Under the pieces are notes generated by a model. The model saw only the letters and a program-made list of their open reading frames with translations. It was not told the DNA's origin and searched no databases. A stretch of 32,000 bases of DNA from Candidatus Nanosynbacter lyticus. GTDB taxonomy: Bacteria > Patescibacteriota > Saccharimonadia > Saccharimonadales > Saccharimonadaceae. Positions 2,764 to 19,372 of the stretch are shown one piece after another (the first letter of the stretch is position 1; every line of letters begins with the position of its first letter). Made by a program: the position numbers and the translations under genes. Location: assembly GCF_000803625.1 (NCBI RefSeq), contig NZ_CP007496.1, positions 270,001 through 302,000 of the forward strand, given 5' to 3'.

Positions 2764-3306
2764 GTGGAGAGAATATTAACACAATTTGCCAATTCTGGCG
2801 CGTCAGAGAAGGCTGATTTGCTGAGCTCGCTAGGGATTGATTGGACATTGCTAGCACTTCAGACAGTAGCGTTTCTGATTCTGCTTTTCGTGCTGCGTAA
2901 GTTTGTCTATCCGCCAATGATGGAGATGCTTGTTAAGCGCGAGAAAGACCTTAAGGCTGCGGACGCGGCGGCGAAATCAGCCAAAGAAAATGCTGATAGA
3001 GCCGAAGAGATGACTGCCGAGATGGTGCGAAAAGCCCGAGTTGAAGCTAGTAATATCGTAGCATCAGCTCGAGAAGAAGCAGCCGAGGTTGTTGAGGAAG
3101 CGGCTAAAAAAGCCACCGCCAAGTCGGAGGCCTTGATTAAAGAAGCTCATAATACAATTGCCCAGGAAGTTAAAAACGCTAAGAAAGAATTGCATAATTC
3201 AACTCTGGAATTGGTAGCTGAGGCGGCTGGCAAAGTCTTAAACGAGAAGATTAATTCTAAAAAGGATGCAAAGCTAATCTCGACCGCGCTAGAGGAGGCT
3301 GAATAG
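2764..3306 (+). CDS. atpF: F0 ATP synthase subunit b
   Basis: GTG start preceded by GGAG. One N-terminal TM helix is followed by a long Ala/Glu/Lys-rich coiled coil. Operon position fits subunit b. Confidence 0.85.
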   Translation: MERILTQFANSGASEKADLLSSLGIDWTLLALQTVAFLILLFVLRKFVYPPMMEMLVKREKDLKAADAAAKSAKENADRAEEMTAEMVRKARVEASNIVASAREEAAEVVEEAAKKATAKSEALIKEAHNTIAQEVKNAKKELHNSTLELVAEAAGKVLNEKINSKKDAKLISTALEEAE

Positions 3307-3705
3307 ATGCGATTGGTGTCCAGGCGAAAGTTGGCAAAATACGCAGCTGAGCAGATTATGGCTGGCAATGATACGATTATGGAAGAAATTGCTAGTTTGT
3401 TGGTTCATGAAAAACGCCAGCGAGAGATTGAGTTGTTAGTGAGGGATGTCGAAGCAGAATTGGCTGAGCATGGTGAAATCGTGGCGTCAGTTGAAAGCGC
3501 AAGGAAGCTTGATGTTGATACAAAGCGAGAGATAGAAAAATATCTGATGTCTGCAGTGAGCGCCAATAATAATAAGTCGAAGGTGACGCTGAAGGAATCA
3601 ATTGACCCAACGCTAATTGGTGGCTTCAAGCTACGAACGCCAACCGCAACGCTGGACGCGACGATTGCCAAGAAATTAAACGACTTGCGGGCGAAGAAAA
3701 TCTAG
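3307..3705 (+). CDS. atpH: F1 ATP synthase subunit delta (short form, 132 aa)
   Basis: The C-terminal sequence [29 protein letters not shown] matches the OSCP/delta C-terminus. The ATG directly abuts the atpF stop. The protein is about 45-50 aa shorter than typical delta subunits. Confidence 0.75.
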
Positions 3706-3713
3706 GAGGAAAA

Positions 3714-5240
3714 ATGAGCAAGATTGATGTGACAGAACTAGCCAAAAGCCTGCGGGAAAAAATCGCGCAGCTGGAGGCGACGGAAGGACTAGAGGACGCT
3801 GGTGTGGTCATCCGCGTCGGTGACGGCGTGGCATGGGTGCACGGCCTCAGTAAAGCTGGCTACAGCGAAGTGCTAGAAATTGAAACTGATGGCGGCACAG
3901 TGGAAGCCTTTGCGCTGAACTTGATGGAAGATGAAATCGGTGCGGTGATCCTCGGCGGCGAAGAAAAAGTCAAGGCTGGCGCCAGCGTTCGCCGCAAGGG
4001 TGCGGTGCTGGACGTGCCGGTTGGCGAGGAACTGCTCGGCCGCGTGGTTGACCCGCTCGGTCGGCCGCTCGATGGCGGACCAGCTATCAAGACGAAGCAG
4101 CGTGGGCTGATTGAACGGCCAGCCATCGGCGTGATGGGCCGCAAATCGGTGCATGAACCATTGATGACCGGTATCATGTCAATTGACGCCATGTTCCCAA
4201 TCGGTCGCGGGCAGCGTGAGTTGATCATCGGTGATCGCCAGACCGGAAAGACCGCTATTGCCATCGACACCATGATCAACCAGGCACGGCAAAAGACCGG
4301 CGTAGTCAACGTTTACGTAGCGATTGGACAGAAATTATCAAAGATTGCCAGGTTGGTTGACCGCCTGAAAGAAGAAGGCGTGATGGAGCAAACCATCGTG
4401 GTGGCGACTAGTCCGTCGGACGCGGCTTCCCTGTTGTACCTGGCGCCATATGCTGGTACGGCCATGGGTGAATATTTCCGCGACAACGGTGGCCACGCGC
4501 TGATGATTTATGACGATTTGACCAAGCACGCCGTGGCTTACCGCCAGATGTCGCTCTTGCTCCGTCGTCCACCGGGACGAGAGGCGTATCCTGGTGATGT
4601 CTTCTACTTGCACTCTCGTCTGCTGGAGCGTTCAGCTAAGTTGTCGGACGAATTGGGCGCCGGTTCACTGACTGCCCTGCCGATCATCGAGACACAGGCT
4701 GGCGATATTTCGGCGTACATCCCGACCAACGTGATTTCCATCACCGACGGCCAGATTTTCCTGGAAACTGACTTGTTCTACCAAGGTATTCGCCCGGCGA
4801 TTTCTGCCGGTCTATCAGTTTCCCGCGTAGGTGGTGCTGCCCAGACCAAGGCGGTTAAATCAGTTGGTGGTAACTTGAAGCTCGGCCTTTCACAGTTCCG
4901 TGAATTGGCATCGTTTGCTCAATTTGGCTCGGACCTGGATGATGCGACCAAGGCACAAATTGACCGTGGTCAACGTTTGACTGAGCTGCTCAAGCAGCCG
5001 CAGTACCAGCCGATGAGTGTCTGGGAACAATTTGTCAGTATCCATGCGGTGACCAGCGGTGCGTTTGACAGTGTGCCAGTCGCCAAGATCAAGGAAGCAC
5101 AGGACACTCTGTTGACACAGCTTTGGAAGAATAACAAAGACGCAATGCGTGAACTAAACAAGGGTGACAAGCCGACTGACGAACAACTGAAGCTGATTGA
5201 TGAGGCAACGCAGGCAGTGGCGAAAGGATTTGAGGAGTAA
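3714..5240 (+). CDS. atpA: F1 ATP synthase subunit alpha
   Basis: Walker A GDRQTGKT plus [20 protein letters not shown] and other alpha-subunit signature stretches. The SD AGGAGG lies upstream. Confidence 0.98.
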
Positions 5241-8900: not shown

Positions 8901-10031
8901 CTATATATCTTCAAGTATCTGGCGAACTTCGTCTGTATTTGTGGTATGCATCAACTGTTCACGCAGTTCTTTGGCGCCGTCAAAGTCGCGGATGTAGATT
9001 TTGAAGAAGCGTTTGAGGGTTTCATAGGGGCGGCTGAGGGTTGGTTGGTAGCGGTCAAAGAGGTCGAGGTGGTAGTGTAGTAAGGCGATTAGTTCAGATT
9101 TGTGATGAATAGTTGAACCATCCTCTGCCTCGGAGTACTCTTTACGGGTGGCTTCGCCAGCCCGTGGCGTTCGGCTGACGGGGCTTGACGTGTCCACCGC
9201 AGCCCCCAATTTAGCGTACGTGTTGCCCATCTCTCGGGTATCGTCATAAAATAATCCGGGACCCGCTAAAGCCAGCCCAGATTTTTTCTGAGATACCGCT
9301 CGAGATGCTCGAAAACAAAACGGATCGCTAAATACTCCCCGCCCGATCATGATGCCGTTGAGGCCTGGGTGGGCTGCAAATAGTTCTTCGCCGTGGGCAC
9401 GGTCGCGGATGTCGCCGTTGATGGTTAGTAGCGTCTGTGGGGCGATTTCATCACGCAGTTTAATGATATCGTCGATGAGCTCGTAATGCGCCGGGACTTT
9501 ACTCATCTCCTTTTTGGTGCGCAGGTGGATGGTCAAATTAACTATGCCTTGCTGCAAAATAGTTGTCAGCCACTCTCGCCATTCGTCAACATACGTATAG
9601 CCTAACCTAGTTTTGACGCTGACTGGTAACCCGGCAGTTTTAGCGGCGGCGATGGCGGCAACTGCTATGTCGGGCTGGCGGATCAGTGCTGCGCCACCTG
9701 ATTTGATGGCGGATTTGGCGGGACATCCCATATTGATATCAATTCCGTTAAAACCAAGTTCCGCGCAGTGCTTCGCGAAAGCTTCCATGTCCCCTGGCTC
9801 ACCACCCCAGATTTGGGCGATCAGCGGATGTTCGTCGTCTGTTTTAATCAACCGTCCAGCGATAGCCTTATCGCCAGCATGCACCCAGCCGGTGGCATTG
9901 GCAAACTCGGTGAAGAACACGTCGGGTGCGCCTGCCTGTTTCACGACATGACGAAACACCACGTCAGTGACGGCTTCCATGGGCGCCAAGATGAAAAATG
10001 GCTGCGGTAAATCATTCCAAAATGATGTCAT
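8901..10031 (-). CDS. tRNA-dihydrouridine synthase (Dus family)
   Basis: Motifs FILAPMEAVTD and GIDINMGCPAKS (catalytic Cys) indicate a TIM-barrel Dus. I place the start at ATG 10031 because the track start 10067 lies inside the upstream terminator stem, and TGA-TAAAAT lies 7 nt upstream of 10031. The protein contains an extra Ser/Ala/Gly/Thr-rich insertion of about 55 aa. Confidence 0.9.
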   Translation of the reverse strand: MTSFWNDLPQPFFILAPMEAVTDVVFRHVVKQAGAPDVFFTEFANATGWVHAGDKAIAGRLIKTDDEHPLIAQIWGGEPGDMEAFAKHCAELGFNGIDINMGCPAKSAIKSGGAALIRQPDIAVAAIAAAKTAGLPVSVKTRLGYTYVDEWREWLTTILQQGIVNLTIHLRTKKEMSKVPAHYELIDDIIKLRDEIAPQTLLTINGDIRDRAHGEELFAAHPGLNGIMIGRGVFSDPFCFRASRAVSQKKSGLALAGPGLFYDDTREMGNTYAKLGAAVDTSSPVSRTPRAGEATRKEYSEAEDGSTIHHKSELIALLHYHLDLFDRYQPTLSRPYETLKRFFKIYIRDFDGAKELREQLMHTTNTDEVRQILEDI

Positions 10032-10047
10032 CTCTGTTATTTTATCA

Positions 10048-10085
10048 CAAAAAGGAGAAAACCCCATCTCGTCATTGAGATGGGG
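10048..10085 (-). terminator. Intrinsic terminator ending the upstream RNA locus
   Basis: The minus strand reads CCCCATCTC-AATGAC-GAGATGGGG (9-bp stem, 10085->10062) followed by TTTTCTCCTTTTT. Confidence 0.75.
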
Positions 10086-10297
10086 TGTGGCGGGCTCAAG
10101 CGGTTCTGCTCGGAATCGTCCTCTGCGTTGAGGATGACTCTACGAGTGAATCTCGCGAACCCGAAAGTTGGAAAACATCAATACTTCCACGTGCCGGCTC
10201 ACGTTGCTAGGCGTCGTTGTCTAGCGGGGAAATATTGATGAACCTGAACGCCGCTAGGCGCTTTCGGCGTTGTGTCCCAGGTTTTTCGATTGCCGGA
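10086..10297 (-). ncRNA. Unclassified, densely structured RNA (~210 nt) between the tRNA-like element and the terminator
   Basis: Several long helices pair by eye: AACCTG/CAGGTT plus AACGCCG/CGGCGTT, a 13-bp helix closing two hairpins, and GGTTC/GAACC closing two hairpins. There is no credible ORF. The segment is bounded by an encoded CCA on the 5' side and an intrinsic terminator on the 3' side. Confidence 0.4.
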
Positions 10298-10372
10298 TGG
10301 CGGACATGGAGGGAGTCGAACCCCCTATCCAGCCTCTATCTAGAGATAGAGGGGTTTCCGATTTACATGTCC
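10298..10372 (-). ncRNA. tRNA-like element (acceptor stem + T arm + encoded CCA, no anticodon arm; tmRNA-TLD-like)
   Basis: The minus strand reads GGACATG TAAATCGGAAAC CCCTCTATC-TCTA-GATAGAGG CTGGATA GGGGG-TTCGACT-CCCTC CATGTCC G CCA. It has a perfect 7-bp acceptor stem and a canonical T-loop, but one 8-bp helix with a tetraloop replaces the D and anticodon arms. Confidence 0.55.
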
Positions 10373-10422
10373 CTTGATTCTTTCCCGGATTACCGGCTGG
10401 GGAATCAGACCCAGGGGCAGGC

Positions 10423-10569
10423 TTAAGCCTTTTTGCCGCAGTTCGGGCAATGGAATTTCCATGACTTAAGCTTCGAGGGGTCCACGTAGAAAACGCTTCC
10501 ACATTTACTACAGGTTTTCATTGTAGTGTACAGACCCGTGGGGGTGTTCTTTCCATAATATTTGAACAC
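10423..10569 (-). CDS. Small zinc-ribbon protein (48 aa from GTG; core 32 aa from ATG 10521)
   Basis: Two CxxC pairs, CSKC...17 aa...CPNC. The SD GAGGTG (10580-10575) lies 5 nt upstream of GTG 10569. The longer 68-aa track ORF has no SD. Confidence 0.5.
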   Translation of the reverse strand: MFKYYGKNTPTGLYTTMKTCSKCGSVFYVDPSKLKSWKFHCPNCGKKA

Positions 10570-10667
10570 CGTCTCACCTCTTTCCTGAAAGAAAAGAGCC
10601 GACCTCCCAACTGTGCTCCTAGAGAGCACAACTTAGAAAAGTCAGCTCCACTAACAAAGCGTTTATT

Positions 10668-10696
10668 ATAATAACACTAACTATAAAAAAATGCAA
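10668..10696 (-). promoter_or_regulatory. Putative promoter for the zinc-ribbon ORF / tRNA-like RNA transcript
   Basis: TTGCAT (10696-10691), 17-nt spacer, then TGT-TATTAT (10673-10668). It lies immediately downstream of the helicase stop codon. Confidence 0.45.
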
Positions 10697-10714
10697 CAAT
10701 ATACTAGAATATTT

Positions 10715-13700
10715 TTATATCTCCCCTGTCAGAAGGTCGTTTTCAAATTGTAGCATCCCCTTATAATCCGCCGAATAGCCAGAAACGTCTGGCAGATCTA
10801 GGGTGGTGATTTTTCGCCAAATAATCTCAATCAGTTGCGTAAATTCAGACAATTCTTCTCTGGAGAATGTGTCTTCCAAGCTAAGAATATCGCCGGTCTT
10901 CATGTCTGGCTCGACAAATTGTAGTCGCCCGCCAGTAAACGTGAAATTGCTATAATCGCGTGAATGCTCGACCAGCAGCTGATAGAACATCAACTGCTGA
11001 CGATATTTATGAAGTTTGATTTTCTCGTAATCAGCCGAGCCTTTCCAAGAATGAGATGGTTTACCAGTTTTATAATCTGTTACAAATATAGTTTTATTCT
11101 GTTTATCAATGTCGACGACATCAAGTTTACCAGTTAATTTGGCTTCCCCTATAATTACGCCTTGATTAGAAAAGTCCAATTCCGCCAAATCCGTGTCATG
11201 AAAATCAGAGGCCTTGGTGTTTAAGAATGTGGTCAAAGCCGACTTCCCTTTATCCAAGTACAATTGAAAATCATCCGCAGGTAAGTGTTGGTCCTCTAGC
11301 GACTTTTGGAAAAACTGGAGGATTTGTTCAGTGCTTGGCAATTGGTGATCTGTGCTTAATAGATAATGTGCTTGTTGAAGACTGTTGTGAATCGCGGTTC
11401 CGTAAGATGCGGCGGAATTTTTGGCGGCTGGGAAATGCAGCAAATTGTTCAATAAGAAATTCTGTGGCCCGCCGCGCGAAACATCGAGGAAATTATTAAG
11501 ATGCGTTACCGAGAGTTTGTAGGTTTCTAGGTTTGGAGCTAGTAAGTCTTTTAGCTCTGGAATAATCGGTGAAGTCAAGCGTTCCGACCAACTGGTCTTG
11601 GCAATTTCAATCTGTTCTGTTGGATTTTCGATGGCGGGAATAATAGTTGGCGTGTGATTAGTGAGGAAGCTGGCAATTATTGTGTCGCTGCCAGAATCGT
11701 TGGTCTGCGAGTAAGTCATCGTCAAGGTGTTTTTGGCGCGGGTCATCGCCACGAAGAACAGACGAAGTCGCTCGTCGTAGGTTGCTCCAGCTGGCTGAAG
11801 TTGGAGATTTGCGGGATAGCGGATTAGTCGACTGCGCGTACGAACCTTCTCTCCCCAAGCGCTGTCAATTGCCCCGACAACAAAGACGTGTGGGAATTCT
11901 AGCCCTTTGGACTTGTGGGCGGTCATTAGGTTAATGGCACCGCGGATTGAACTGGCGTACGGTCGGATTTGTGTTAGGCGGGTTTTGGTTGATATGTGAA
12001 GATCTATAAACTCCAGAAAATCTTCCAAGGTTGGATTTTTATCGGTAATTCGGTCACGGAGTTTTTGGCGTAGAGTGCGCAGACTCTCTAAGGTCGTTAA
12101 ATATGTATCGGGGTTTTTCTCTAGCTTGTCTGGTGAAAAATAAAAGTTGGCGATAGAACTCGTCGAGGTATTGTAATCTTTATTGTCAACGGTTAATCCT
12201 AATAGATTATCCAACTGCTCTTCTAGTGGTAGATTTGGTACGTCCTTGGCACGGTCCAGTAGCCACTCGCCAAATTCCTTAAATGTGCTATTTGCCAGCA
12301 TACTTTCCAGCCACAATTGTCTATTTTTATAAGCGTGAAGGCTTAATTTCCAGATGTCTGACGTTGAAAAACCGAATGCTGGATGAGCGATAATCTCTGG
12401 AAGGAGGCTATTGGCTAGGCTTAAATCATTTTGGTGAATTGCCACGATGACTCGCGCTAGCTTATCTAAAATCTGGATAATGTCTTGTTCTAAAATGTCG
12501 TCGTGTCGCTCGTAATTAACCGCGATATTTTCTCTATAAAGATACGGAAGTATCTCGATTAATTCTTTGTGATGGCGCGCAATGATCGTGATGTTTTCTG
12601 GTTTTTCGCCGCTTTTTATTAGCTCGGCAATTTGCTTAGCCACTCCCGCTCGCTCTTCGCTGGCAGAAGAAAATTCTTGGATTTCAACACGCGATCCTTG
12701 GCTGTCTGCGTGCGCTGTCAACTGCTTAGACAGTCCGTCAATGGTATTTTCTAGTCGATCTGAACCTTGGGTGATTACTTGTCGCGCTGACGTTAAAATA
12801 TTTTCAGCCGAGCGATAGTTATCCGTTAGAACGATGATTTTTGGATTGTGATAATGTTGGCGGAAACGCTGGATATTACCTACGTCCGCACCCTGGAAGC
12901 TGAAAATCGCTTGATCATCATCACCGACGGCCATGATATTTGGATTGTCGTCGTTGTCGCTGGTTAAATTGAATAGCAATCGAAGCTGTGCTAAGTTGGT
13001 GTCCTGGAATTCATCGACCATGATGAATTGGAATTGCTCTTGGAGATTTGCACGCAATTCTGGGTGAGATTCGCAGGCTTGAATAACGGATAAAATCATG
13101 TCGTCGTAGTCAAATAACGAGCGCTCGGATAAAATATTTACGTATTTTTCGTAAACGTCGATTACGGCGGATAATTTTTCTGCGGCTGCCGAGTCTTTCA
13201 GGACAAATTCGCCATTGGCATTTTTTTCGCACCATTTATTTTTCCAAGCAGTCAGCGGCTTGGTGGAGTTGGTGTCAATTGCCTCCTGAGCAGCATGCGC
13301 GACGCTAAGCGCTAAGACGTTGGCGTACGGAGTGACGGAAGATGGTAAATTAGAATTTTCTTTTTCGGGATTTTTATCAATTGACTCGGCGATTCTTTCA
13401 GCCATTGGCGCAAATAATTCTATGGTTTTTTTAGATATTTTGGTGGCAAAAATCTGCTGAATGTCTGGCGCAATTTCATCTATAATGCGCTGATTATCCG
13501 CAATAATTGTCTTTAGTTCTGCTGGAGTTAAGCCGCTTTGCTTGAATTCGGAAATAACTCGAATTAGTTCTTTGATATAAACAAATTCCCCGCTATTTTT
13601 CACAGTTAATGGATTTCGCCAATCAAGATTTTCAAGAATTCCAGAGATAATTTGGTACTGTGTTAACTCGTCAACAGGCTGGGCGTCGGCGCCACGGAAA

Positions 13701-14014
13701 AAATATTCTCGATGTTGATTGATAATTTCTGTGCCAAAGCTATGAAATGTATGGATGGCAATTTTATATGCATCCTCGCCAATAATCTGACGAAGGCGTT
13801 GGCGCATGTTGGTGGCGCCACTTTCAGTAAAGGTCAAACATAAAATACTATTCGGTAAAGTATCGGTCTTCTTAAGTATTTGAGCGGTACGCATGCTTAG
13901 CAGCTCGGTTTTGCCTGTTCCTGGTCCAGCAATCACCAGAAGTGAGCCGTGGATATAATCAACAGCTTGGCGCTGATTATCATTTAACTTTGCGTAGCGA
14001 GTATTGAAATCCAT
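10715..14014 (-). CDS. UvrD/PcrA-type superfamily 1 helicase fused to a C-terminal PD-(D/E)XK (RecB/AddA-like) nuclease
   Basis: Walker A GPGTGKT, DEFQDT (motif II), and TAHKSKGLEF plus VAMTRAK (motifs V/VI). The C-terminal GKLDVVD...VTDYKTGKP...YRQQLMFYQLL forms a D..D-x-K plus QxxxY nuclease signature. Confidence 0.9.
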   Translation of the reverse strand: MDFNTRYAKLNDNQRQAVDYIHGSLLVIAGPGTGKTELLSMRTAQILKKTDTLPNSILCLTFTESGATNMRQRLRQIIGEDAYKIAIHTFHSFGTEIINQHREYFFRGADAQPVDELTQYQIISGILENLDWRNPLTVKNSGEFVYIKELIRVISEFKQSGLTPAELKTIIADNQRIIDEIAPDIQQIFATKISKKTIELFAPMAERIAESIDKNPEKENSNLPSSVTPYANVLALSVAHAAQEAIDTNSTKPLTAWKNKWCEKNANGEFVLKDSAAAEKLSAVIDVYEKYVNILSERSLFDYDDMILSVIQACESHPELRANLQEQFQFIMVDEFQDTNLAQLRLLFNLTSDNDDNPNIMAVGDDDQAIFSFQGADVGNIQRFRQHYHNPKIIVLTDNYRSAENILTSARQVITQGSDRLENTIDGLSKQLTAHADSQGSRVEIQEFSSASEERAGVAKQIAELIKSGEKPENITIIARHHKELIEILPYLYRENIAVNYERHDDILEQDIIQILDKLARVIVAIHQNDLSLANSLLPEIIAHPAFGFSTSDIWKLSLHAYKNRQLWLESMLANSTFKEFGEWLLDRAKDVPNLPLEEQLDNLLGLTVDNKDYNTSTSSIANFYFSPDKLEKNPDTYLTTLESLRTLRQKLRDRITDKNPTLEDFLEFIDLHISTKTRLTQIRPYASSIRGAINLMTAHKSKGLEFPHVFVVGAIDSAWGEKVRTRSRLIRYPANLQLQPAGATYDERLRLFFVAMTRAKNTLTMTYSQTNDSGSDTIIASFLTNHTPTIIPAIENPTEQIEIAKTSWSERLTSPIIPELKDLLAPNLETYKLSVTHLNNFLDVSRGGPQNFLLNNLLHFPAAKNSAASYGTAIHNSLQQAHYLLSTDHQLPSTEQILQFFQKSLEDQHLPADDFQLYLDKGKSALTTFLNTKASDFHDTDLAELDFSNQGVIIGEAKLTGKLDVVDIDKQNKTIFVTDYKTGKPSHSWKGSADYEKIKLHKYRQQLMFYQLLVEHSRDYSNFTFTGGRLQFVEPDMKTGDILSLEDTFSREELSEFTQLIEIIWRKITTLDLPDVSGYSADYKGMLQFENDLLTGEI

Positions 14015-19297: not shown

Positions 19298-19372
19298 TGG
19301 GACGTCGCCAAGTGGTAAGGCACTGGGTTTTGGTCCCAGCATTCGCAGGTTCGAATCCTGCCGTCCCAGCCA
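19298..19372 (+). tRNA. tRNA-Gln (anticodon UUG), CCA encoded
   Basis: Full cloverleaf: acceptor TGGGACG/CGTCCCA (U1:A72, G73), D arm GCC-AAGTGGTAA-GGC, anticodon arm CTGGG-TTTTGGT-CCCAG, T arm GCAGG-TTCGAAT-CCTGC. It is very close to the E. coli tRNA-Gln layout. TGT-TATAAT lies at 19269-19277. Confidence 0.95.

Follow-up and report, generated by a model that had tools for sequence, protein, structure and literature searches.

The window analyzed here is a 32,000-nt stretch of the Candidatus Nanosynbacter lyticus genome. Its minus strand carries an RNA gene of ~370 nt that extends approximately from 10414 to 10049, with the 250-nt segment 10048-10297 forming the 3' two-thirds. The gene order on this strand is a small zinc-ribbon ORF, the RNA, the RNA's own intrinsic terminator and dus. 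Pfam analysis of the neighbouring genes identified a UvrD/PD-(D/E)XK helicase-nuclease, the zinc-ribbon ORF and Dus; no integrase or mobile-element genes flanked the locus.

The small ORF (10423-10569, minus strand; from the ORF list) encodes 49 aa plus a stop codon and has a strong Shine-Dalgarno sequence, with a GTG start 5 nt after GAGGTG. Pfam returned only zinc-ribbon matches. Its match to the Cas12f1-like TNB family was weak (24.4 bits, below the cut-off), and a TnpB remnant was rejected in favour of a generic zinc ribbon. The RNA directly follows the ORF, probably in the same transcript; no separate promoter was evident ahead of the RNA. In relatives the small ORF is either a zinc-ribbon or a ~55-aa helical type and stops ~10-20 nt before the RNA. 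These two kinds are unrelated, and the RNA is conserved behind both.

At its 3' end the gene is closed by an intrinsic terminator (10049-10085, minus strand; CCCCAUCUC-AAUGAC-GAGAUGGGG plus U-run) comprising 10 pairs (6 G-C), a 6-nt loop and then UUUUCUCCUUU. The terminator scan identified it on the minus strand only, in agreement with the first-pass annotation, which had placed the U-tract on that strand alone. A terminator was present in all homologues with varying sequence, while the hairpin preceding it (the rod, described below) was invariant. Downstream, a putative extended -10 element of dus was read from the sequence at 10039-10047 (minus strand; TGATAAAAT), ~8 nt before the ATG at 10031. 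The stretch at the dus start, GUGAUAAAAUAACAGAG-AUG, was conserved in nearly all loci and replaced by TGTTATAAT in the L056 clade. The extended -10 element, if it acts as a promoter, would mark the RNA as a unit separate from dus, and the RNA's own terminator together with this conserved element argues that the RNA is independent of dus.

Folding of minus-strand 10048-10297 gave a minimum free energy (MFE) of -96.4 kcal/mol compared with a shuffle mean of -68.5 (z = -5.9), and 0 of 200 shuffles were as low. The helices quoted in the first-pass annotation were all present at the positions given there, and the MFE fold reproduced the hairpin termed alpha here, the 13-bp helix with its GCUAG and ACGUG hairpins, and the terminator. 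Since the plus strand also folded well (z = -4.2), the strand call rests on the terminator, the gene order and the many G-U pairs in covarying helices; the earlier assignment to the minus strand was upheld.

Homologues of the RNA gene in Saccharibacteria

Loci were collected via Dus, and a homologous RNA gene was found upstream of dus in them. In total, more than 90 Saccharibacteria loci (oral and gut) carried a homologue at the same position just upstream of dus, in most loci directly and on the same strand. An unrelated gene separates the RNA from dus in three loci (L006, L012 and L032), and in the L056 clade a second RNA bearing a tRNA/tmRNA-like domain (TLD) is the one adjoining dus. The rod and the other modules were kept across 70-94% Dus identity. 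Conservation in relatives was confirmed for the segment first annotated, whose helices alpha and beta re-fold in divergent sequences using different base pairs.

From 5' to 3' the modules are an H-type pseudoknot, the TLD 2-3 nt further on, a variable middle and a near-invariant 71-nt hairpin. The middle consists of one hairpin (hairpin B) alone, of an M module or of larger inserts. TLD cassettes of different kinds and differing middle modules have recombined among strains, and this cassette-like variability sits between conserved flanks. Judged from comparative sequence data, the gene is single-copy, Saccharibacteria-specific, multi-module and non-coding, and it apparently represents a new, undescribed family.

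The 5' pseudoknot and the tRNA/tmRNA-like domain

Pair counts in 26 distinct homologues identified the H-type pseudoknot at 10375-10414 (minus strand). Stem S1 is formed by CUGGG (10410-10414) and CCCAG (10397-10401), and S2 by pairing of the loop UGAUUC (10402-10407) with GAAUCA (10375-10380), located 3' of the hairpin CCGGUAAUCCGG (10385-10396) and of GAAA. Compensatory changes were found in S1 and the inserted hairpin (e.g. CUGGC/GCCAG, UCGGC/GCCGA and CGGGG/CCCCG). S2 was 90% paired in the 26 distinct homologues and reads UGAUC/GAUCA in L032. For pseudoknot and TLD together, pairing amounted to 95.9% and 13 pairs had changed on both sides; 0 of 500 shuffles reached the observed values. In all Nanosynbacter-type loci, 2-3 nt separate the end of the pseudoknot's 3' strand from the TLD; a different closing helix, GACGG/CCGUY, which ends 3 nt before the TLD, was found in the L056 clade.

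The TLD (10298-10372, minus strand) was identified with the Rfam tmRNA model and by covariation in 26 homologues. It contains a 7-bp acceptor stem (GGACAUG/CAUGUCC, strands at 10366-10372 and 10302-10308), a D-region with GG present and no D stem, the hairpin CCUCUAUC-UCUA-GAUAGAGG, a T-arm (10309-10325; GGGGG-UUCGACU-CCCUC) directly 5' of the acceptor 3' strand and a terminal G plus CCA (10298-10301). The tmRNA match covered the TLD only (17.7 bits, E 5e-5, threshold 47), and its alignment skips 286 consensus positions. The interior that separates the T-arm from the 5' acceptor strand is only 41 nt long. Higher scores were obtained in relatives (L032, 36.8 bits, E 3e-11; L039, 30.7 bits; L021, 25.5 bits). 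The acceptor stem was 100% paired in the 26 homologues with compensatory changes in 5 of 7 pairs, and the T stem covaries. Pairing of the two acceptor strands is local, across ~60 nt, and their covariation is mutual and does not extend to any downstream strand.

Every TLD keeps the T-loop UUCRANY and a 7-bp acceptor, and the interiors are unrelated between types. One type possesses a D-arm and scores 40.9 bits with the Rfam tRNA model; another is tmRNA-like (36.8 bits, E 3e-11). Two TLDs were present in some loci and none in four (L020, L030, L031 and L041), and one middle module was found with four different TLD types. Neither the Rfam tRNA model nor ARAGORN called the window TLD, which has no tRNA cloverleaf with 7-nt anticodon loop and no conserved anticodon identity, and the anticodons that ARAGORN assigned in relatives were arbitrary (Ser, Val, Arg, Trp, Phe, SeC or undetermined). 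The window TLD has A3-U70 and G73 and so is without the alanine identity pair. A GGGUGUG...CACAUCC-A type in ~30 relatives has G3:U70 and A73, both lost in variants such as CACACUC-G and CACACCC-G; G3:U70 varied between TLD types and within the tmRNA-like type itself. The first-pass annotation had taken the encoded CCA as a landmark. This trinucleotide (10298-10300) turned out to be confined to the sub-family with the window-type middle module; in other sub-families the acceptor is followed by ACUG, GCUG, GCCG or GCUA. The TLD appears to be conserved as a shape and not as a sequence.

An optional middle module and a near-invariant 3' hairpin

The M module (10176-10297) is optional and lineage-specific, and this segment was absent or replaced in close relatives. 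It contains the helix alpha hairpin (10241-10283, minus strand; AACCUG/CAGGUU plus AACGCCG/CGGCGUU in the MFE fold), which was kept in 9 distinct window-type homologues and has a counterpart, AACUUGGG/CCCGAGUU, in the divergent module of the L003/L028 type. The helix beta domain (10176-10240, minus strand; MFE fold and alignment of homologues) consists of a 13-bp helix, CAUCAAUAUUUCC/GGAAGUAUUGAUG, enclosing hairpin B (10206-10225, loop C-AACGAC-G) and hairpin gamma (10189-10204). The alignment revealed one G-C to A-U compensation in hairpin gamma, and the same architecture is built from other sequence in L003 (CAUUG..CUUCUC/GAGAAG..CAAUG) and L028. Minimal forms of the gene contain hairpin B alone. 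A pyrimidine-rich linker (10163-10175, minus strand; UUUUCCAACUUUC), unpaired in the MFE fold, precedes the 3' hairpin, and relatives have a C/U-rich linker of 9-13 nt at the same position.

No Pfam match was found in the four ORFs overlapping segment 10048-10297, in line with the earlier reading that it holds no credible ORF. We also examined by eye the frames through GCUAGACAACGACGCCUAGCAACGUGA, ARQRRLAT* (frame 1) and LDNDA* (frame 2). Frame 1 has an early UGA in L048 and frame 2 carries the replacements N>D, D>G and A>V; among close relatives the frames gain stops or change length, with no conserved tag ORF, and minimal relatives have only a 25-nt hairpin in their place. A tag ORF in the M module was therefore rejected, its frames not being conserved and the module being absent from many relatives.

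The 3' hairpin, or rod (10092-10162, minus strand; 71 nt), is near-invariant, with one copy per locus. A covariance model built from it (R1) scored 88 bits on the window and, in 93 of 97 sources, detected a single copy in each locus; a single locus, L046, is without a rod. The pairings are GGGUUC/GAGCCC (acceptor-like, 7 bp counting G-U), GCG/CGC, G(A)UUC/GAAC and CUCG/CGAG, which close a variable hairpin at 10113-10142. Overall, 93.7% of cells were paired; the outer stem and CUCG/CGAG had undergone compensatory changes, and the invariant CAGAACCGC (10100-10108) was exact in 72 of 80 loci. The outer stem GGGUUC (10157-10162)/GAGCCC (10092-10097) had 6/6 pairs in 45 and 5/6 in 23 of 71 distinct homologues, with compensatory changes, and is GAGACU/AGUCUC in the L056 clade. 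It fits better than the pairing originally proposed, GGUUC (10157-10161) with GAACC (10102-10106), which was fully complementary in only 22 of the 71. CUCG (10143-10146)/CGAG (10109-10112) likewise carries compensatory changes (CG in 63, UA in 7) and competes with the previously described hairpin CGAG-AUUCA-CUCG, a pairing that is possible in all sequences. The inner rod helices lack covariation at a divergence where the TLD stems covary freely; their invariance could also reflect alternative pairings.

Two further pairings involving the rod were rejected. In a T-arm-like hairpin, CGAGC-AGAACC-GCUUG, the change CGAG>CGAA/CAAA breaks the pairing, yet it is compensated by CUCG>UUCG/UUUG. The long-range closing helix of the whole-region MFE fold, GGCUUAAGCCUGC/GCAGAACCGCUUGAGCC, clashes with the covarying rod, and its 5' partner is absent in relatives.

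GCCA lies directly 3' of the rod's acceptor-like stem, just before the terminator (10088-10091, minus strand; read from the sequence). This second N-CCA had been missed in the first-pass annotation. Of 71 distinct homologues, ~30 (~42%) have N-CCA after the rod and the others NCCC, NCCG or CUCC (the last in the L056 clade). The CCA of the window's tRNA-Gln is encoded in its gene. The segment first described as one stand-alone RNA of ~210 nt between CCA and terminator resolves into the optional M module and the conserved hairpin at 10092-10162, and both belong to a longer unit that starts with the pseudoknot and the TLD.

Searches for known RNA families

Rfam 15 (gathering thresholds and E<=10) assigned no family to the RNA. 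RNase P, SRP and 6S RNA gave no match in 9950-10750 at E<=10 with permissive filters, nor in L021 3300-4010 (E<=10) or L048 3560-4000 (E<=1). The earlier failure to place the segment in a known family was thereby upheld, the sub-threshold tmRNA match lying on the neighbouring TLD only. ARAGORN called nothing in the segment, and no tmRNA in the window or 40 loci. The permuted tmRNA model RF04321 had no match in the window at E<=10 and a weak one in L021 (17.4 bits). No match was found in phage or plasmid collections, and viral contig matches were attributable to chance. A degenerate pattern run against metagenome and viral collections likewise gave mostly chance matches, as expected from its information content; among the matches listed, at least 16 were true, all of the same Saccharibacteria types.

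Several specific candidates were also rejected. RNase P RNA was suggested by GCAGAACCGCUU, which resembles CR-V by eye, and GGAAAGAAUC, which resembles CR-I, but there was no Rfam match and no covarying P4 partner. SRP RNA was suggested by hairpin size and an AGCAG motif, but there was no GNRA tetraloop, the conserved loops lie far from the apex and Rfam gave no match. A permuted tmRNA was rejected because covariation supports the upstream 5' strand, and the candidate strand found downstream lacks complementarity in relatives: 5 of the 7 positions of GGGACAC pair, the sequence is GGAGGCA in L029, and covariation is absent. An integron attC-like or att-site DNA element did not fit the symmetry, and no integrase was found.

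Discussion

The explanation that we favour, with a confidence somewhat short of an even chance, is that the gene encodes a processed multi-module non-coding RNA, in which tRNA-maturation enzymes would use the TLD as an exchangeable handle and the functional product would be the invariant hairpin. The primary transcript would be cut by the tRNA-maturation machinery: RNase P may cut 5' of the TLD and perhaps also 5' of the terminal hairpin, and RNase Z or exonucleases may act on the 3' side. The pseudoknot could then accommodate the 3' end of the upstream piece, an arrangement like that of MALAT1/mascRNA. Two prerequisites of a tRNA-like processing signal were seen, namely the conserved acceptor/T-arm/elbow shape and an upstream structure ending 2-3 nt before G+1. 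The TLD would in that case be a swappable processing handle selected only for this shape, and the replacement of one kind of cassette by another would be accounted for. The hairpin would most likely be recognised sequence-specifically by a protein, as suggested by inner helices that do not covary where the TLD stems do. Also in favour of this explanation are the single-stranded pyrimidine leader of the rod, its outer stem of 6-7 bp and the N-CC(A) that follows; against the explanation, N-CCA is found in only ~42% of distinct sequences, L046 has no rod, and every cleavage step is one that we infer. Base-pairing of the leader up to -3 also agrees badly with the contacts that the protein of bacterial RNase P makes with leaders. 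CCA acts as an RNase Z anti-determinant in Bacillus-type systems; since the window-type TLD carries CCA, processing cannot be uniform across the family. Possible, though doubtful, is that the gene defines a new Saccharibacteria-specific ribonucleoprotein RNA class, in which the 71-nt hairpin and not the TLD is active as a tRNA-mimicking adaptor or decoy for a tRNA-binding enzyme or the ribosome, and the tmRNA-derived domains only load the precursor onto the tRNA-maturation pathway. With its GCCA the rod is ~75 nt and tRNA-sized.

Alternatively, the RNA might be tmRNA-derived and still function in ribosome rescue, its TLD binding SmpB and entering stalled ribosomes without tagging, or it might be a piece of a multi-piece tmRNA. 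The match to tmRNA as the only Rfam family (in the window, L032, L039 and L021), the GGGUGUG...CACAUCC-A type with G3:U70 and A73, the pseudoknot-like structure in which the middle regions are rich, a gene end of N-CCA plus terminator as in ssrA genes and the weak permuted-tmRNA match in L021 all point this way; a tagless role has been proposed likewise for ORF-less mitochondrial tmRNA, and in the multi-piece version the other pieces would be the downstream modules. However, the acceptor strands pair and covary locally with no downstream partner, the alanine identity pair is missing from the window TLD and not kept elsewhere, there is no conserved reading frame, and four loci have no TLD. Furthermore, a standard tmRNA gene is already present in most Patescibacteria genomes (5252 genes in 6765 genomes in a phylum-wide count; PMC11915505, Supplementary Table 2). 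We consider this reading unlikely. It is similarly improbable that the RNA is a long structured 3' UTR whose sole role is to stabilise or end the small-ORF mRNA, with the downstream modules as functionless by-products. The RNA does always start 6-20 nt after the stop of an ORF with a strong Shine-Dalgarno sequence and has no evident promoter, and a pseudoknot beside the TLD would protect a processed 3' end. Against this, the RNA is conserved behind two unrelated kinds of small ORF, and the rod, which lies farthest from the ORF, is near-invariant over 90 loci, which is hard to explain for a by-product.

Regulation of dus in cis or trans, through a tRNA mimic that titrates or senses Dus or through control of terminator read-through, would account for an RNA lying immediately upstream on the same strand in most loci and for the second TLD-bearing RNA of the L056 clade adjoining dus. 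Bacterial tRNA-like Y RNAs are also reportedly Dus substrates, a finding attributed to Chen et al. in 2014. Nevertheless, a strong terminator is followed by the conserved extended -10 element and a near-leaderless dus start, no conserved anti-terminator pairing was found, terminators vary while the rod is invariant, an unrelated gene intervenes in three loci, and the window TLD lacks a D-arm, the Dus target; we regard such regulation as quite improbable. Finally, tRNA and tmRNA genes are common integration sites (PMC11915505), and the cassette-like variability between conserved flanks might suggest decaying tRNA/tmRNA gene debris from integrating elements, or fortuitous pairings. Each TLD, however, has both acceptor strands with compensatory changes, the rod and modules are conserved at 70-94% Dus identity, and neither flanking integrase or mobile genes nor phage or plasmid matches were found, which leaves debris or chance a very slim prospect.

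Saccharibacteria have ~0.7 Mb genomes with very little non-coding DNA, yet they keep a structured RNA gene of 300-500 nt in a fixed place with an almost invariant core. No validated small RNAs were reported for them in the literature searched (bioRxiv 10.1101/2022.03.25.485537). If the processing model is correct, this RNA would be a bacterial case of a tRNA-shaped element used as a swappable processing handle in a longer non-coding transcript, and would offer a view of tmRNA/tRNA parts recycled into new RNAs. The invariant hairpin would be a concrete target for a new RNA-protein partnership in the candidate phyla radiation. Saccharibacteria are genetically tractable via natural transformation (PMC10633639), which makes the role of the RNA directly testable.

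Among known systems, the RNA resembles tmRNA (SsrA; RF00023) in its 7-bp acceptor, canonical T-arm and D-loop analogue without a D stem, in the G3:U70/A73 of relatives, in its pseudoknot-rich surroundings and in the N-CCA and terminator at the gene end. In tmRNA, however, the RNA's own 5' and 3' ends form the acceptor, with the pseudoknots and the tag ORF inside it, whereas the present TLD closes locally, over ~60 nt. There is no tag frame, the window has A3-U70/G73, the score is 17.7 bits against 47 with no ARAGORN call, and nothing in tmRNA corresponds to the conserved core, the rod. Permuted two-piece tmRNAs (RF01849-51, RF04321) similarly have an internal T-arm, acceptor 3' strand and CCA followed by more structured RNA in one precursor, but their 5' acceptor strand lies downstream of the CCA, whereas here it lies upstream and covaries. 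The ORF-less mitochondrial tmRNA (RF02544) shows that a TLD without an ORF can persist. Transcripts such as MALAT1 and MEN-beta, with mascRNA, and the plant-mitochondrial t-elements also hold a tRNA-shaped element within a longer transcript with an interior free to vary, and, as in MALAT1/mascRNA, the new 3' end left by RNase P would be held by a structure just before the element, which here is an A-rich H-type pseudoknot. Those systems are eukaryotic or organellar and have no sequence relation to this RNA, for which cleavage is only inferred and the pseudoknot is not a demonstrated triple helix. YrlA and other bacterial Y RNAs (RF02553) are likewise non-coding and combine a tRNA-mimicking module with a separate protein-binding helix, but the YrlA ends leave from the anticodon-stem side and not, as here, from the acceptor stem, no rsr (Ro60) gene lies nearby, and the Rfam score was 14.3 bits against a threshold of 69 (L021). 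OLE, GOLLD and ROOL are also highly structured and lineage-restricted with optional modules, GOLLD and ROOL often adjoin tRNAs, and the function of these RNAs is unknown or only recently approached; the RNA described here has no Rfam match, is far smaller and carries its tRNA-like element inside the RNA and not beside it.

Locus organization and folding of the RNA

The row of minus-strand genes at this locus begins with a UvrD/PD-(D/E)XK helicase-nuclease gene (10715-14014) followed by a hairpin with a U-run. It continues with a zinc-ribbon ORF of about 50 aa identified from the ORF list and Pfam (GTG at 10569, stop at 10423), a stretch of ~370 nt without a credible ORF, an intrinsic terminator present on the minus strand only (10049-10085), and dus (start at 10031; Pfam Dus, E 4.5e-48). 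The first-pass annotation had described 10048-10297 as a densely paired, noncoding minus-strand RNA; none of the four short ORFs overlapping this segment had a significant Pfam match, in agreement with its noncoding call. A promoter-like TTGCAT-17-TATTAT sequence (10668-10696, minus strand) was observed upstream of the long U-run hairpin (10587-10649), and the Shine-Dalgarno sequence of the zinc-ribbon ORF comes only after this hairpin, which is either an attenuator or the terminator of the helicase gene, in the latter case located within the following transcription unit.

Every helix previously listed is present in the sequence. Folding of 10048-10297 (minus strand) alone recovered helix alpha (AACCUG/CAGGUU plus AACGCCG/CGGCGUU, 10241-10283) and the 13-bp helix beta around the GCUAG and ACGUG hairpins (10176-10240), together with a long irregular 3' hairpin and the terminator. 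The fold energy was -96.4 kcal/mol compared with -68.5 +/- 4.7 for shuffled sequences (z = -5.9). The opposite strand likewise folded well (z = -4.2), as is usual for complements, and the strand was therefore assigned from the minus-only terminator, from the order of the genes, and from the covarying helices, whose many G-U pairs would turn into A-C if read from the complement. These data upheld the minus-strand assignment.

Comparison with known RNA families

The proposed Rfam scan (Rfam 15, gathering thresholds) of the whole 32-kb window revealed tRNA-Gln (19298-19369) as the sole match, and thus assigned no known family to the segment. When permissive filters were applied to 9950-10750, the only relevant match was tmRNA (17.7 bits, E 5e-5, threshold 47), restricted to the acceptor stem and T-arm at 10298-10372 with 286 consensus positions skipped; no RNase P, SRP, 6S, permuted tmRNA, ribozyme or riboswitch was detected. 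The earlier failure to match tmRNA, SRP, 6S or RNase P RNA was thus borne out. ARAGORN called no tRNA or tmRNA at the locus, and no similar sequence was found in phage and plasmid collections. Full-text searches of the literature turned up no report of an RNA of this kind from Saccharibacteria, and one paper reports no validated small RNAs for TM7x (bioRxiv 10.1101/2022.03.25.485537). The family is apparently undescribed.

Several specific candidates were rejected. For a standard tmRNA, the acceptor pairs locally, the window lacks alanine identity, there is no conserved tag frame and the score is sub-threshold. For a permuted tmRNA, the downstream candidate 5' strand GGGACAC pairs at 5/7 positions and is replaced by GGAGGCA in the homologous locus L029. 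The conserved anticodon arm of a tRNA is missing. YrlA has the opposite topology, scored 14 bits and has no rsr gene nearby. RNase P, SRP and 6S RNA gave no model matches, and resemblances seen by eye failed on comparison. A mobile element was dismissed on the absence of integrase among the neighbours and the empty phage and plasmid searches; viral pattern matches were chance, in coding DNA.

Conservation upstream of dus

To place the segment among relatives, 80 Saccharibacteria loci were fetched via the Dus protein (69-94% identity) and compared by nhmmer. Two parts were kept upstream of dus in nearly all loci, namely the surroundings of the tRNA-like element (10441-10296) and the last ~160 nt (10201-10040), the latter including the 3' part of the segment for which a homologue search had been suggested. 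The length between them ranged from about 25 to about 270 nt. The 9-mer CAGAACCGC (10100-10108) occurred exactly, and once, in 72/80 loci. The segment is a genuine structured RNA within a larger, lineage-restricted family with a tmRNA/tRNA-like domain; the first-pass outline was right, but it erred in its boundaries, in the role given to the CCA and in how the 3' hairpin was folded.

Among strains, the ORF preceding the RNA (10423-10569) is of two unrelated kinds that share a strong Shine-Dalgarno region. One is a zinc ribbon whose N terminus carries the motif F(K/A)YY(G/A)K.(T/S)P.GLYT, the other a helical protein of ~55 aa rich in Ala/Lys/Arg. At the other end, a putative extended -10 element, TGATAAAAT, was kept upstream of dus in all loci (10031-10049), with TGTTATAAT as its counterpart in the most distant clade. 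It lies only about 8-12 nt from the ATG and no Shine-Dalgarno sequence is present, which suggests a leaderless or near-leaderless dus mRNA with a -35 region overlapping the terminator U-run of the RNA. In L012 and L032 (~3070-3990), the RNA and dus are separated by an ORF of ~300 aa that, from its HPFxDGNGR motif, looks Fic-like by eye; their adjacency is therefore not obligatory. The most distant clade also carries a second RNA gene between the terminator and dus (L056 3600-3990; also L042, L058, L060, L067, L069, L071, L073, L074 and L076-L080), with its own TTGACA-17-TACAAT promoter. The tRNA-like domain of this second gene scores 35 bits with the Rfam tRNA-Sec model, has a D-arm as well as a long 'anticodon' arm (loop C-AAUGGA-G), and precedes a GUGAGC...GCUCAC domain and a terminator.

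A pseudoknot and an exchangeable tRNA-like domain

Two elements of the same gene lie outside the originally described segment. An H-type pseudoknot (10375-10414, minus strand) is formed by S1 (CUGGG/CCCAG), whose loop UGAUUC pairs with a GAAUCA that comes after a small inserted hairpin and an A-rich strand; its 3' end stops 2-3 nt short of an acceptor stem. This stem belongs to the tRNA/tmRNA-like domain (TLD; 10298-10372, minus strand), which comprises a 7-bp acceptor (GGACAUG/CAUGUCC), a stemless GG-containing D region, an 8-bp hairpin and a canonical T-arm. The acceptor stem was 100% paired in a comparison of 26 distinct homologues, with compensatory changes at 5/7 pairs, and the T stem covaried. 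S1 and the inserted hairpin also covaried, and S2 is UGAUC/GAUCA in L032. The pairing and covariation observed for pseudoknot and TLD were reached by 0/500 column shuffles, and slid controls were 34-54% paired.

The TLD types have unrelated interiors. One combines a true D-arm with a long 'anticodon' hairpin (L039, Rfam tRNA 40.9 bits), one is tmRNA-like (GGGUGUG...CACAUCC-A, with G3:U70 and A73; L032, Rfam tmRNA 36.8 bits, E 3e-11), and several, including that of the window (A3-U70, G73), are D-armless. Anticodons assigned by ARAGORN to the TLDs of relatives were arbitrary, and about a dozen loci carry two tandem TLDs. What is kept in the TLD is a shape and not a sequence. In the L043/L048 type (L048 3647-3729), AUUCUGGA lies directly 3' of the 5' acceptor strand, where E. 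coli tmRNA has the identical 8-mer; for this type the Rfam tmRNA model gave 7 bits, from the T-loop only.

L020, L030, L031 and L041 have no pseudoknot or TLD, and carry instead an unrelated, highly structured module X of ~230 nt (CUAUACCUCCGCUACAGGCGAC...GCUGCCGUUC, L020 3680-3870), which follows the TLD in L021 and L034. The region holding it (L020 3595-3990) had a fold z of -7.7, and module X had no Rfam match. Most relatives also have three extra hairpins 5' of the pseudoknot (L004 ~3645-3720, L038, L043); their place is taken in the window, as in L029 and L059, by the zinc-ribbon ORF. In the relatives that have these hairpins, the loop of the third one (GGGCG-UCCGUC-CGCCC) offers a CCGUC complementary to the GACGG at the 5' terminus, a pairing that appears to covary (GACAG/CUGUC, GGCAG/CUGUC).

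The optional middle module

The middle helices in the first-pass description were recovered by folding, but belong to an optional module (10176-10297) and are not a fixed part of the RNA. The window-type module was represented by nine distinct sequences, too alike for much covariation. Among the 31 predicted pairs there were a single G-C to A-U compensation and several switches between G-U and G-C. The same architecture, hairpin alpha and then helix beta around a hexaloop hairpin and a second hairpin, was predicted independently between the TLDs of L003- and L028-type loci, a region of far greater divergence in which helix beta is CAUUG..CUUCUC/GAGAAG..CAAUG or CAUUGG..CCUC/GAGG..CCAAUG. Minimal genes have hairpin B alone between TLD and the conserved 3' hairpin. 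The window-type module was paired with four different TLD types, indicating recombination of modules between strains. By locus, the acceptor stem is followed by ACUG, GCUG, GCCG, GCUA or GCCA; GCCA occurs exactly in loci with the window-type module (5' end CCAUCCGGCAAU). The encoded CCA that had served as a landmark thus belongs to the module junction, not to the family.

The conserved 3' hairpin

A covariance model of the 3' hairpin, or rod (10092-10162), was built from 36 sequences and run on 97 sources. Exactly one copy per locus was found in 93/97; the others were two truncated loci, L022 (different upstream gene) and L046 (module absent). The window scored 88 bits at 10087-10163. The outer stem pairs GGGUUC (10157-10162) with GAGCCC (10092-10097), and GCG/CGC, G(A)UUC/GAAC and CUCG (10143-10146)/CGAG (10109-10112) close a variable hairpin; 93.7% of alignment cells were paired. 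Compensatory changes were identified in the outer stem (GGGCUC/GAGCCC, GGACUC/GAGUCC; GAGACU/AGUCUC in the most distant clade, CCGGGC/GCCCGG in L040) and in CUCG/CGAG (UUCG/CGAA, UUUG/CAAA), and the inner helices showed zero variation. In L020, L021, L030 and L034 the internal loop becomes a Watson-Crick helix (GUUUCUA/UAGAAC), which supports the fold. The GGUUC/GAACC pairing first suggested was fully complementary in 22/71 distinct sequences, compared with 45 for GGGUUC/GAGCCC (plus 23 with 5/6 pairs). The CGAG-AUUCA-CUCG hairpin is possible everywhere through G-U pairs, but without compensatory change; the RNA may alternate between the two folds.

Counting G-U, the outer stem has 7 bp and is followed in the window by GCCA (10088-10091) and the terminator. 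About 42% of distinct homologues have N-CCA after the rod, and most of those of the Nanosynbacter type have N-CC there; CCA is encoded in the tRNA-Gln gene of the window. A class of C-G-closed hexaloops, roughly A-(A/G)-N-G-N-N (AACGAC, AACGAU, AAUGGC, AAAGGC, AGCGUU, AACGCA and others), was noted in the window (10206-10225, 10113-10142) and many loci, capping hairpin B, the rod's variable hairpin, the 'anticodon' hairpin in TLDs of the D-arm type and a hairpin of the larger inserts. In a crude scan, ~35/95 distinct 6-nt loops closed by C-G were of this class, which may recur as a site of protein binding or tertiary contact.

Possible function

We tentatively favour, at somewhat below even odds, a precursor that would be cut by tRNA-maturation enzymes, with the TLD as a swappable handle and the rod as the conserved product. 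The TLD features under selection (acceptor/T-arm helix, T-loop and GG elbow partner) are the very ones that RNase P, RNase Z and the CCA-adding enzyme recognize, and TLD cassettes with unrelated interiors, tRNA-like and tmRNA-like included, replace one another. The upstream structure always stops 2-3 nt before G+1, as the pseudoknot in Nanosynbacter-type loci and as a GACGG/CCGUY closing helix in its place in the L056 clade. The rod has a single-stranded, pyrimidine-rich leader, an acceptor-like stem and often N-CCA. Together these features favour cleavage by tRNA-maturation enzymes, and the invariant inner helices point to sequence-specific recognition of the rod by a protein. The processing reading is weakened by the non-universal N-CCA after the rod, by a leader paired up to position -3, by the absence of the rod from one locus, and by the CCA on the TLD of the window sub-family, which should block RNase Z, as established for Bacillus-type systems.

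Among other explanations, a rescue RNA derived from tmRNA is unlikely; an additional canonical ssrA is likely in these organisms, given the 5252 standard tmRNA genes counted across 6765 genomes of Patescibacteria (PMC11915505). Similarly improbable is a mere 3'-UTR stabilizer of the small ORF. Regulation of dus by the RNA seems more doubtful still, as the RNA ends at a terminator of its own and dus has a conserved, putative extended -10 element and a near-leaderless start, and we give very little credence to debris or chance. Under the favoured processing model, cleavage would leave the upstream small-ORF piece with a structure-protected 3' end, and it is in this protected end that we propose a likeness to MALAT1/mascRNA.
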